Shown piece by piece: positions 15,848 to 15,898 of a DNA stretch of 64,000 nucleotides. Within the stretch, counting starts at the first letter, position 1, and the number at the start of each line of letters is the position of its first letter. The DNA comes from Escherichia phage NHEP10. The notes beneath the pieces were generated by a model, which did no database searches, had not been told where the DNA came from, and was given only the letters and a program-made list of their open reading frames with translations. Where the stretch lies: the sequence record PQ511148.1; one strand, given 5' to 3'. A program made the position numbers and the translations under genes.

Positions 15848-15898
15848 TTCTCCAGTAGTTGATAGGTCTATAATAACACAACTACTGGAGAAGTAAAC
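15848..15898 (-). promoter_or_regulatory. Early promoter (GTTTAC - 17 bp - TATTAT) embedded in 14-bp perfect inverted repeat that includes the SD
   Basis: Arms 15848-15861 and 15879-15892 are exact reverse complements; right arm carries SD of ORF 15526-15843. Confidence 0.6.

Follow-up and report, generated by a model that had tools for sequence, protein, structure and literature searches.

Bacteriophage T4 is a model for temporal gene control. Its early promoters are turned off 2–3 min after infection, and middle and late transcription continues across the same co-oriented genes (PMC2988021; PMC3014915). The shut-off of early protein synthesis has been attributed to an incompletely understood promoter shut-off and to cleavage by RegB (PMC3014915), which cuts GGAG in the Shine-Dalgarno (SD) sequences of early genes, including its own (PMC3014915; PMC2988021). 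A structural switch is known from T4 e, soc, 49, I-TevI/II/III, and segB and from Aeh1 mobE, in which the SD or the AUG is paired in long transcripts and a late promoter within the structure yields a shorter RNA without the 5' arm, from which translation proceeds (PMC3014915; PMC2988022). The genes known to use this late-promoter hairpin switch "are all late genes" (PMC2988022).

Early promoters have been associated with stem-loops in another context. [quoted passage not shown] No translational role has been discussed for PeSLs, and the word "translation" is absent from the 2010 paper (PMC2839356). The paper on the RB69 genome, in which 57 early promoters were predicted, makes no reference to hairpins (PMC1524935). 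Among transposable elements, IS10/Tn10 is shielded from outside transcription by an RBS-occluding structure, according to the citation of Davis, Simons and Kleckner (1985) in PMC13181058, and the translation signals of IS200 are likewise sequestered (PMC3196728).

Early-promoter elements with predicted SD-pairing hairpins

We analyzed a stretch of 64,000 nucleotides from Escherichia phage NHEP10 (PQ511148.1), hereafter the window. A probe of ~4 kb around the focal site matched a large set of T4-type phages of E. coli (HX01, JN02, ST0, and NHEP29) at ~98% identity. HX01 is classified in Straboviridae, Tevenvirinae, Mosigvirus (the RB69-like group), and the window is, by sequence identity, that of an RB69-like (Mosigvirus) T4-type coliphage. 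The gene order, taken from the annotated relative NHEP29, is that of the classical T4 early region and runs from the topoisomerase gene through motB, dexA, dda, modA/B, soc, 61, imm, dmd, 41, uvsX, 43, 45, 46/47, and 55 and beyond. Because essentially all genes of the window are carried on the minus strand, promoter and hairpin elements are read here as the reverse complement. A scan for early-promoter-like sites followed by an SD and an ATG yielded ~24 early promoters, all on the minus strand. The T4/RB69 early-promoter consensus is GTTTAC-N17-TAnnAT, often with TGn before the -10 (PMC1524935; PMC2988021), and the promoters of the elements described below are of this early type (GTTTAC-N17/18-TAnnAT).

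Two indels were observed in comparison with close relatives. At window position ~15349 (L001 21352–21554), NHEP29, HX01, and several other relatives carry ~203 extra bp, a segment that represents an additional ORF of ~70 aa between dmd and the promoter at 15327; the indel junction lies 22 nt from an early promoter and is without two flanking promoter cassettes. At 32118–32925, the window carries ~800 bp that are absent from the 98%-identical phage NHEP29. The ORF at 32201–32917 (plus strand, 238 aa) in this insertion is the sole sizeable plus-strand ORF within the minus-strand gene block, and its single Pfam match, a zinc ribbon, fell below threshold; its location and direction are suggestive of a free-standing, mobile endonuclease-like gene.

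The focal element (15841–15898, minus strand) combines an early promoter, an anti-SD hairpin with a perfect 14-bp stem, and the start codon of a 105-aa gene. Its layout on the minus strand is GTTTAC, TTCTCCAGTAGTTG, TGT, TATTAT, AGACCTAT, CAACTACTGGAGAA, CAAA, and ATG. The -35 hexamer GTTTAC (15893–15898) is of the T4 early type (consensus per PMC1524935), and the initial 14 nt of the promoter spacer, TTCTCCAGTAGTTG (15879–15892), form the 5' arm. These 14 nt are a perfect complement of the 3' arm CAACTACTGGAGAA (15848–15861), a 14-nt segment that terminates in the SD GGAGAA and includes the GGAG. The -10 hexamer TATTAT (15870–15875), preceded by TGT as an extended -10, lies within the hairpin loop, and the ATG occupies 15841–15843. 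The hairpin has a minimum free energy (MFE) of -21.7 kcal/mol (z = -5.43 against dinucleotide shuffles). Read-through RNA was modelled with 60 nt of upstream context and local RNA as starting 7 nt after the -10; partition-function folding gave unpaired probabilities of the focal SD of 0.02 for the former and 0.69 for the latter. The downstream gene (15526–15843, minus strand, 105 aa, phrog_2110) lies directly upstream of dmd, and its HX01 orthologue bears the RefSeq label "ADP-ribosyl transferase", a putative database label.

Three further minus-strand elements share this design with long stems. Element 2 (3136–3193) has its -35 at 3188–3193, 5' arm at 3175–3187, -10 at 3165–3170, 3' arm with SD at 3143–3155, and ATG at 3136–3138; its perfect 13-bp stem (MFE -23.9 kcal/mol, z = -5.92) precedes a 174-aa gene (2614–3138, minus strand, phrog_1106), and the SD is predicted to be unpaired with probabilities of 0.00 in read-through RNA and 0.56 in local RNA. 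Element 3 (57797–57856) lies upstream of the endoribonuclease gene regB (57341–57799, minus strand), with its -35 at 57851–57856, 5' arm at 57837–57850, -10 at 57828–57833, and 3' arm with SD at 57806–57819. Its 14-bp stem contains one C.A mismatch, due to a minus-strand C at 57842 in the 5' arm (TTCTCCTCCAGTTG), and has an MFE of about -17 kcal/mol (-16.8 to -17.0; z = -2.66); three close relatives have T at the matching position and a perfect 14-bp regB stem of -21.4 kcal/mol. Element 4 (60992–61051) precedes the endonuclease V gene denV (60581–60994, minus strand), with its -35 at 61046–61051, 5' arm at 61036–61045, -10 at 61022–61027, and 3' arm with SD at 60998–61007, and forms a perfect 10-bp stem (MFE -17.8 kcal/mol, z = -4.73). 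The late lysozyme gene e is located directly upstream of the denV element in the window.

A preliminary description of this DNA had reported "four or more" such sites; its four coordinate ranges (3143–3193, 15848–15898, 57806–57856, and 60998–61051) were exact, all on the minus strand, and we added three weaker ones, at 54203, 16332, and 40024. Element 5 (54145–54203, minus strand) pairs 8 bp between TTCTCCTC (54190–54197) and GAGGAGAA (54152–54159); it precedes a 59-aa gene (phrog_2758), has a canonical terminator just upstream, and with a z of only -0.81 is non-significant alone. Element 6 (16271–16332, minus strand) pairs 7 bp between TTCCTCT (16317–16323) and AGAGGAA (16280–16286; z = -1.89) ahead of a 124-aa gene, and the gene 41 helicase and a terminator-like hairpin lie upstream of it. 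Element 7 (39965–40024, minus strand) has an interrupted stem of 5 + 6 bp with an internal loop, in which TCCTC (40013–40017) pairs with GAGGA (39975–39979) and TAGATG (40005–40010) with CATCTA (39985–39990); its z is -2.85, and the downstream gene encodes 60 aa (phrog_2283). Elements other than the focal, regB, and denV ones precede genes for small proteins without assigned function.

[quoted passage not shown] The inverted repeats had been given as 10–14 bp with the SD of the next gene as the 3' arm, which agrees with the stems of 14 bp (15898), 13 bp (3193), 10 bp (61051), and 14 bp with the mismatch (57856) and with the GGAG core found inside the 3' arm at the four named sites. The -35 and -10 had both been placed inside the repeat; the -10 and the predicted start do lie in the loop, whereas the -35 abuts the repeat just 5' of it. 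For the four named sites, the suggested fold-energy calculation gave MFEs of -17 to -24 kcal/mol, with z values from -2.7 to -5.9. The proposal that read-through would fold the SD into a hairpin and that the local transcript would leave it free was borne out by prediction: the SD was unpaired with probabilities of 0.00–0.18 in read-through RNA at the seven sites (partition function) and of 0.47–0.72 in RNA starting 7 nt after the -10. The predicted local start, ~7 nt after the -10, would lie inside the loop, as had been proposed, 1–3 nt before the 3' arm. On these grounds, we consider it probable that the spacer of these early promoters acts as an anti-SD, such that only RNA from the local promoter would be translatable and read-through RNA would be silenced.

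A second class of early promoters in the window carries strong hairpins (-11 to -14 kcal/mol) whose arms flank the -10 only and leave the SD free (class B; 49560–49605, 38560–38605, 14540–14586, and 53711–53754, minus strand). Class B is about as frequent as class A, the promoters with predicted SD masking; it matches a PeSL subclass described as "overlapping the -10" and is found in T4 at ipI, ipII, dmd, and motB. Since class-B hairpins leave the SD free, promoter-spanning repeats have at least one role besides SD masking. Attenuation, RNA processing or stability, and recombination are candidates, and these could also contribute at class-A sites. In addition, a near-identical spacer, A(A/T)CCAAGGATGG(T/A)TGGAG, was observed in three early promoters (46926–46949, 4677–4700, and 4119–4142, minus strand); it includes a small inverted repeat of its own (AACCA/TGGTT) before TATAAT, and the downstream leaders differ.

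Site specificity and covariation of the pairing

Several statistics within the window addressed complementarity beyond chance. The sequence GTTTACTTCYYC with at most one mismatch occurred 7 times against 1.35 expected, and the four named sites rank among the best spaced inverted repeats of the whole 64 kb. The folding z values against dinucleotide shuffles were -5.4, -5.9, -2.7, and -4.7 at the four named sites (focal element and elements 2–4) and -0.8, -1.9, and -2.9 at the three extra ones. Across all 24 promoters, the 5' and 3' arms fitted each other better than in cross-promoter chimeras (0/20000 permutations reached the observed mean), and within the TTCTCC/GGAGAA class the observed value was reached by 4/5040 permutations. 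Because spacer/leader chimeras folded worse than native pairs, the complementarity is site-specific rather than the product of two matching conserved motifs. At the level of genes (crudely called over the window), 9 of the 19 that have an early promoter no more than 75 nt away showed SD masking (<0.1 unpaired), compared with 12 of the remaining 74 (Fisher p = 0.011).

Two simple sources of the complementarity were rejected. A chance match of two conserved motifs, TTCTCC in the spacer and GGAGAA in the SD, was discarded on account of the site-specific pairing beyond the SD core and the poorer fit of cross-paired arms. A by-product of the conserved early leader TATCAACTAC was also dismissed, as promoters 49605 and 15327 have the leader and non-complementary spacers. 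As a separate observation, a leader motif TATCAAC(T/C)AC follows the -10 (+1 to +10) of many early promoters in this phage and T4 (e.g., 15862–15853, 49569–49560, and 15291–15282) and is present with or without a complementary spacer.

To extend the comparison to relatives, IMG/VR was searched by exact pattern and with protein guidance, which recovered many T4-like contigs of ~170 kb; related loci were retrieved by motif or gene, and the counts given here are accordingly not unbiased frequencies. At regB, the spacer-SD hairpin was present in 15 of 16 loci, over protein identities from 97% down to 56%, and it was absent from the most distant regB locus (40% identity). In these loci, the SD was unpaired with probabilities of at most 0.01 in read-through RNA and 0.5–0.9 in local RNA. 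The regB stems comprised at least five different sequences, e.g., TTCTCCTCTAGTTG, TTTTCCTCTTGACTG, TTTCTCCTCTTTATG, TCTCCTGTAAG, and TTTCCTT plus an inner stem. At denV, the SD was masked in read-through RNA (<0.2 unpaired) in 26 of 28 promoter-bearing loci and was moderately open in local transcripts (median 0.37). The denV anti-SD arm occupied either the spacer or the region from the -10 to ~+6 (e.g., GATGTCTTCC/GGAGGACATC), always upstream of the expected start and always with the SD as its partner. The 5' arm therefore relocates around a constant SD partner, which is expected under SD masking but not for a terminator or a feature of the promoter DNA. The same layout occurs in T4 (NC_000866), at regB (-21.4 kcal/mol), denV (-18.0), nrdC.8 (-19.4), and motB.2 (-23.7). 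In long-leader variants, the position of the 3' arm follows that of the SD, and loops reach ~45 nt.

The covariation set consisted of 57 unique arm pairs, for which the SD core and the complementary segment served as the only anchor, so that the four core pairs are paired by construction. The covariation score was 0.404, compared with 0.200±0.013 for shuffled partners (0/500 reached it) and 0.10–0.14 when the partner was slid by 1–3 columns. The five positions next to the core each showed 4–6 standard pair types, and contiguous pairing beyond the core averaged 3.0 bp, against 0.9±0.18 for permuted partners, over 15 distinct extension arms. By this comparative evidence, the arms co-vary both among paralogous sites and among orthologous regB and denV sites, showing that the pairing is under selection. 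The count of G.U versus A.C by strand was 5 versus 2, too small to separate RNA from DNA structure.

This bears on the possibility that the repeats are a DNA-level feature without an RNA role, i.e., a recombination cassette shuffled in the manner of PeSLs, a cruciform, or a protein-binding palindrome. The elements are indeed repeated and have ~50 nt of similarity in common, and PeSLs have been reported to mediate recombination (PMC2839356; PMC4122927). However, the 3' arm follows the SD and does not keep a fixed distance from the promoter, loops of at least 17 nt would be expected to disfavor cruciform extrusion, and, of the two indels (at 15349 and 32118–32925) that distinguish the window from the 98%-identical phage over the 44 kb compared, neither lies between two elements. 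A sequence-specific protein-binding palindrome was rejected, given that the pairing is preserved by 15 or more different arm sequences. We regard an explanation at the DNA level as highly improbable and favor anti-SD pairing in the RNA.

Proposed translational silencing of read-through RNA and alternative readings

In the proposed mechanism, the otherwise unconstrained spacer of sigma-70-type T4 early promoters would be recruited as an anti-Shine-Dalgarno. RNA initiated at an upstream early, middle, or late promoter and crossing the short intergenic gap would contain both arms; once the SD is transcribed, it would pair with the spacer-derived arm, and the gene would go untranslated. The local early transcript would start 1–3 nt before the 3' arm, lack the 5' arm, and thus present an open SD. 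[quoted passage not shown] The preliminary suggestion that translation is tied to promoter choice gene by gene is supported by these features, in that all its prerequisites hold as far as sequence can tell.

The mechanism presupposes read-through, and the arrangement of the genes is favorable to it. The genes next to the elements are all co-oriented and separated by gaps of 55–60 bp, and the upstream stop codons lie 0–4 nt before the -35; read-through RNA is therefore expected unless transcription terminates. Mapped middle promoters of T4, Pvs.7 (64382), PipIII (66724), and Pdex.2 (10058), are located upstream of regB, denV, and motB.2 (PMC2988021), and a simple scan found no minus-strand terminators between Pvs.7 and regB or between PipIII and denV. 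Given co-oriented genes, upstream middle promoters, and no terminator-like site before regB or denV, read-through into these genes is plausible.

The same geometry raises a competing explanation, in which the stem would govern termination of transcription. PeSL studies have read the promoter-associated stem-loops of T4-type phages as terminators (PMC2839356; PMC4122927), and an RB49 PeSL stem-loop cut expression of a downstream lacZ transcriptional fusion as strongly as rrnB T1 (PMC2839356); attenuation may also occur here. A terminator or attenuator of the PeSL type would stop upstream transcription and leave each gene on its own promoter, the overlap with the SD being incidental, and the class-B hairpins, which leave the SD untouched, fit this picture. 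However, no U-tract follows the stems (mean 1.9 T in the next 8 nt, maximum 4), the loops of 17–45 nt are unlike those of intrinsic terminators, separate canonical terminators lie just upstream of 54203, 16332, and the class-less promoter 10700, and the denV orthologues move the 5' arm while the SD stays as the pairing partner. We consider this reading unlikely, and an intrinsic (Rho-independent) terminator was rejected, as the sites are without a U-tract and have long loops (≥17 nt).

Terminators were observed elsewhere in the window. A consensus terminator scan of positions 1–20000 returned real terminators at 10740 and 1310 and no element site, although the loop limit of the scan excludes the elements in any case. 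Hairpins with a U-run are found at 10719–10740, ~54210–54245, and ~16335–16360 (minus strand), just upstream of the early promoters 10700, 54203, and 16332, and the phage therefore also uses separate terminator-then-promoter arrangements. In the denV loci of jumbo phages (L091, L094, L098, and L099, on contigs of 345–378 kb), a GC-rich terminator hairpin, e.g., GGGTTGACTTCGGTCAGCCC followed by a T-run, lies ~30–70 nt upstream of denV, with a TTGAC -35 in the stem-loop and a TATAAT right after the U-run. This arrangement is a compact terminator-promoter composite, a design unlike the anti-SD spacer.

SD masking could in principle be relieved by ribosomes arriving from upstream. A ribosome terminating on the upstream gene would then melt the stem, and read-through RNA would be translated only together with that gene. 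The upstream stop codon lies 6–10 nt before the 5' arm at four sites, which is close enough to raise this possibility of translational coupling. A terminating ribosome unwinds ~5–7 nt past the stop codon. It would accordingly reach at most the first base of the stem, and at two elements a terminator separates the element from the upstream gene. Coupling therefore appears very unlikely, and we retain silencing of read-through RNA as the preferred reading.

RegB cleavage offers a further alternative, centered on RNA processing or stability. Pairing would hide the GGAG of the SD from RegB (or RNase E) and keep long middle RNAs intact, and the exposed GGAG of local RNA would be cut. This reading draws on the known cleavage of GGAG in early SDs, including that of regB (PMC3014915; PMC2988021), on the SDs of class A, most of which are GGAG(A/G)A, and on the presence of the regB element in 15 of 16 lineages. 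Protection from RegB is, however, not exclusive of SD masking, because a paired SD would also be untranslatable, and the SD core of two elements is GAGG instead of GGAG. We judge protection from cleavage to be a quite unlikely account. Within the mechanism favored here, the two activities may instead be combined: an exposed local SD would be both translatable and cleavable and a paired read-through SD neither, giving a pulse of synthesis.

If early-promoter spacers act as anti-SDs, translation of regB, denV, the putative ADP-ribosyltransferase, and several small ORFs would be confined to the brief firing of the local promoter. These genes would be insulated from longer-lived middle and late read-through RNA, for example from late e transcripts running into denV. 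Both regB and denV are early genes. Regulation of regB is tight, and its early promoter shuts off at 2–3 min (PMC3014915); the mechanism would explain why middle and late read-through does not sustain early proteins such as RegB. More tentatively, for a defined subset of T-even early genes, in which potentially harmful enzymes (RegB, DenV, ADP-ribosyltransferases, and MotB.2) are overrepresented, each gene's own immediate-early transcript might be the only RNA from which it can be translated. Combined with RegB cleavage, this would make a hard-wired pulse, with middle and late RNAs carrying the genes in a silent and RegB-resistant form. Such a general layer of "temporal insulation" is a possibility to which we give limited credence; if true, it would account for some of the shut-off of early protein synthesis, which is poorly understood. 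Being compact and portable, with a promoter, an insulator, and a ribosome site in ~55 bp, the design might find use in synthetic operons. T4 regB and denV offer a direct test of it.

Comparison with late-gene switches, PeSLs, and insertion sequences

The late-gene version of the switch is present in the same window. SD- or start-masking hairpins were observed on the minus strand at e (ATG 61819; endolysin, 61331–61819), 49 (ATG 43826; endonuclease VII), and soc (ATG 10984). The late promoter sequence TATAAATA lies just before the late hairpins at 43863 and 11023, and near-consensus late promoter sequences precede e. TATAAATA was absent from the early-promoter elements, and Rfam covariance models run over the whole window gave no match at the gathering threshold. 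As in the T4 late switches, the SD is (here by prediction) paired in RNA started upstream, and the shorter RNA of the proximal promoter lacks the 5' arm. In the late switches, the promoter is a gp55-dependent late one (TATAAATA) and translation is restricted to late times, whereas the elements described here have a sigma-70-type early promoter with the anti-SD in the -35/-10 spacer and a predicted confinement to the early burst. The idea is less new than the preliminary description implied, because the same logic is textbook knowledge for T4 late genes; if true, it would extend to early genes a mechanism thought to be limited to late ones. Stem-loops preceding ipIII, ipII, denV, and orf61.9 of T4 were reportedly noted by Valerie et al. 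in 1986, and older T4 sequence papers may have described those before denV and regB.

The elements also overlap with PeSLs, with which they share an AT-rich upstream region, an early promoter, a stem-loop, and an SD and ATG in short gaps, and one PeSL subclass has a stem overlapping the -10. In PeSLs, the SD is a separate 3' part, and the stem is read as a terminator and recombination site. The five positional subclasses of PeSLs include none that pairs with the SD (PMC2839356), whereas the stems reported here include it, and T4/PST PeSL stems are placed upstream of the promoter (PMC4122927). If the proposed mechanism holds, some PeSL-type stem-loops would act as insulators of translation, not as terminators.

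In mechanistic terms, insertion sequences provide the closest sigma-70 analogue. In IS10, RNA from the element's own promoter is translated, and RNA entering from outside has its translation signals sequestered. The early elements resemble IS10 and IS200 in that incoming transcripts would fold away the translation signals. The insertion sequences apply this to one gene in a transposable element and have no sequence relation to the phage elements; here the design recurs gene by gene along a phage early region. We conclude that the elements are not a new category but a variant, at early promoters, of a known kind of switch, and that they overlap with the PeSL concept.
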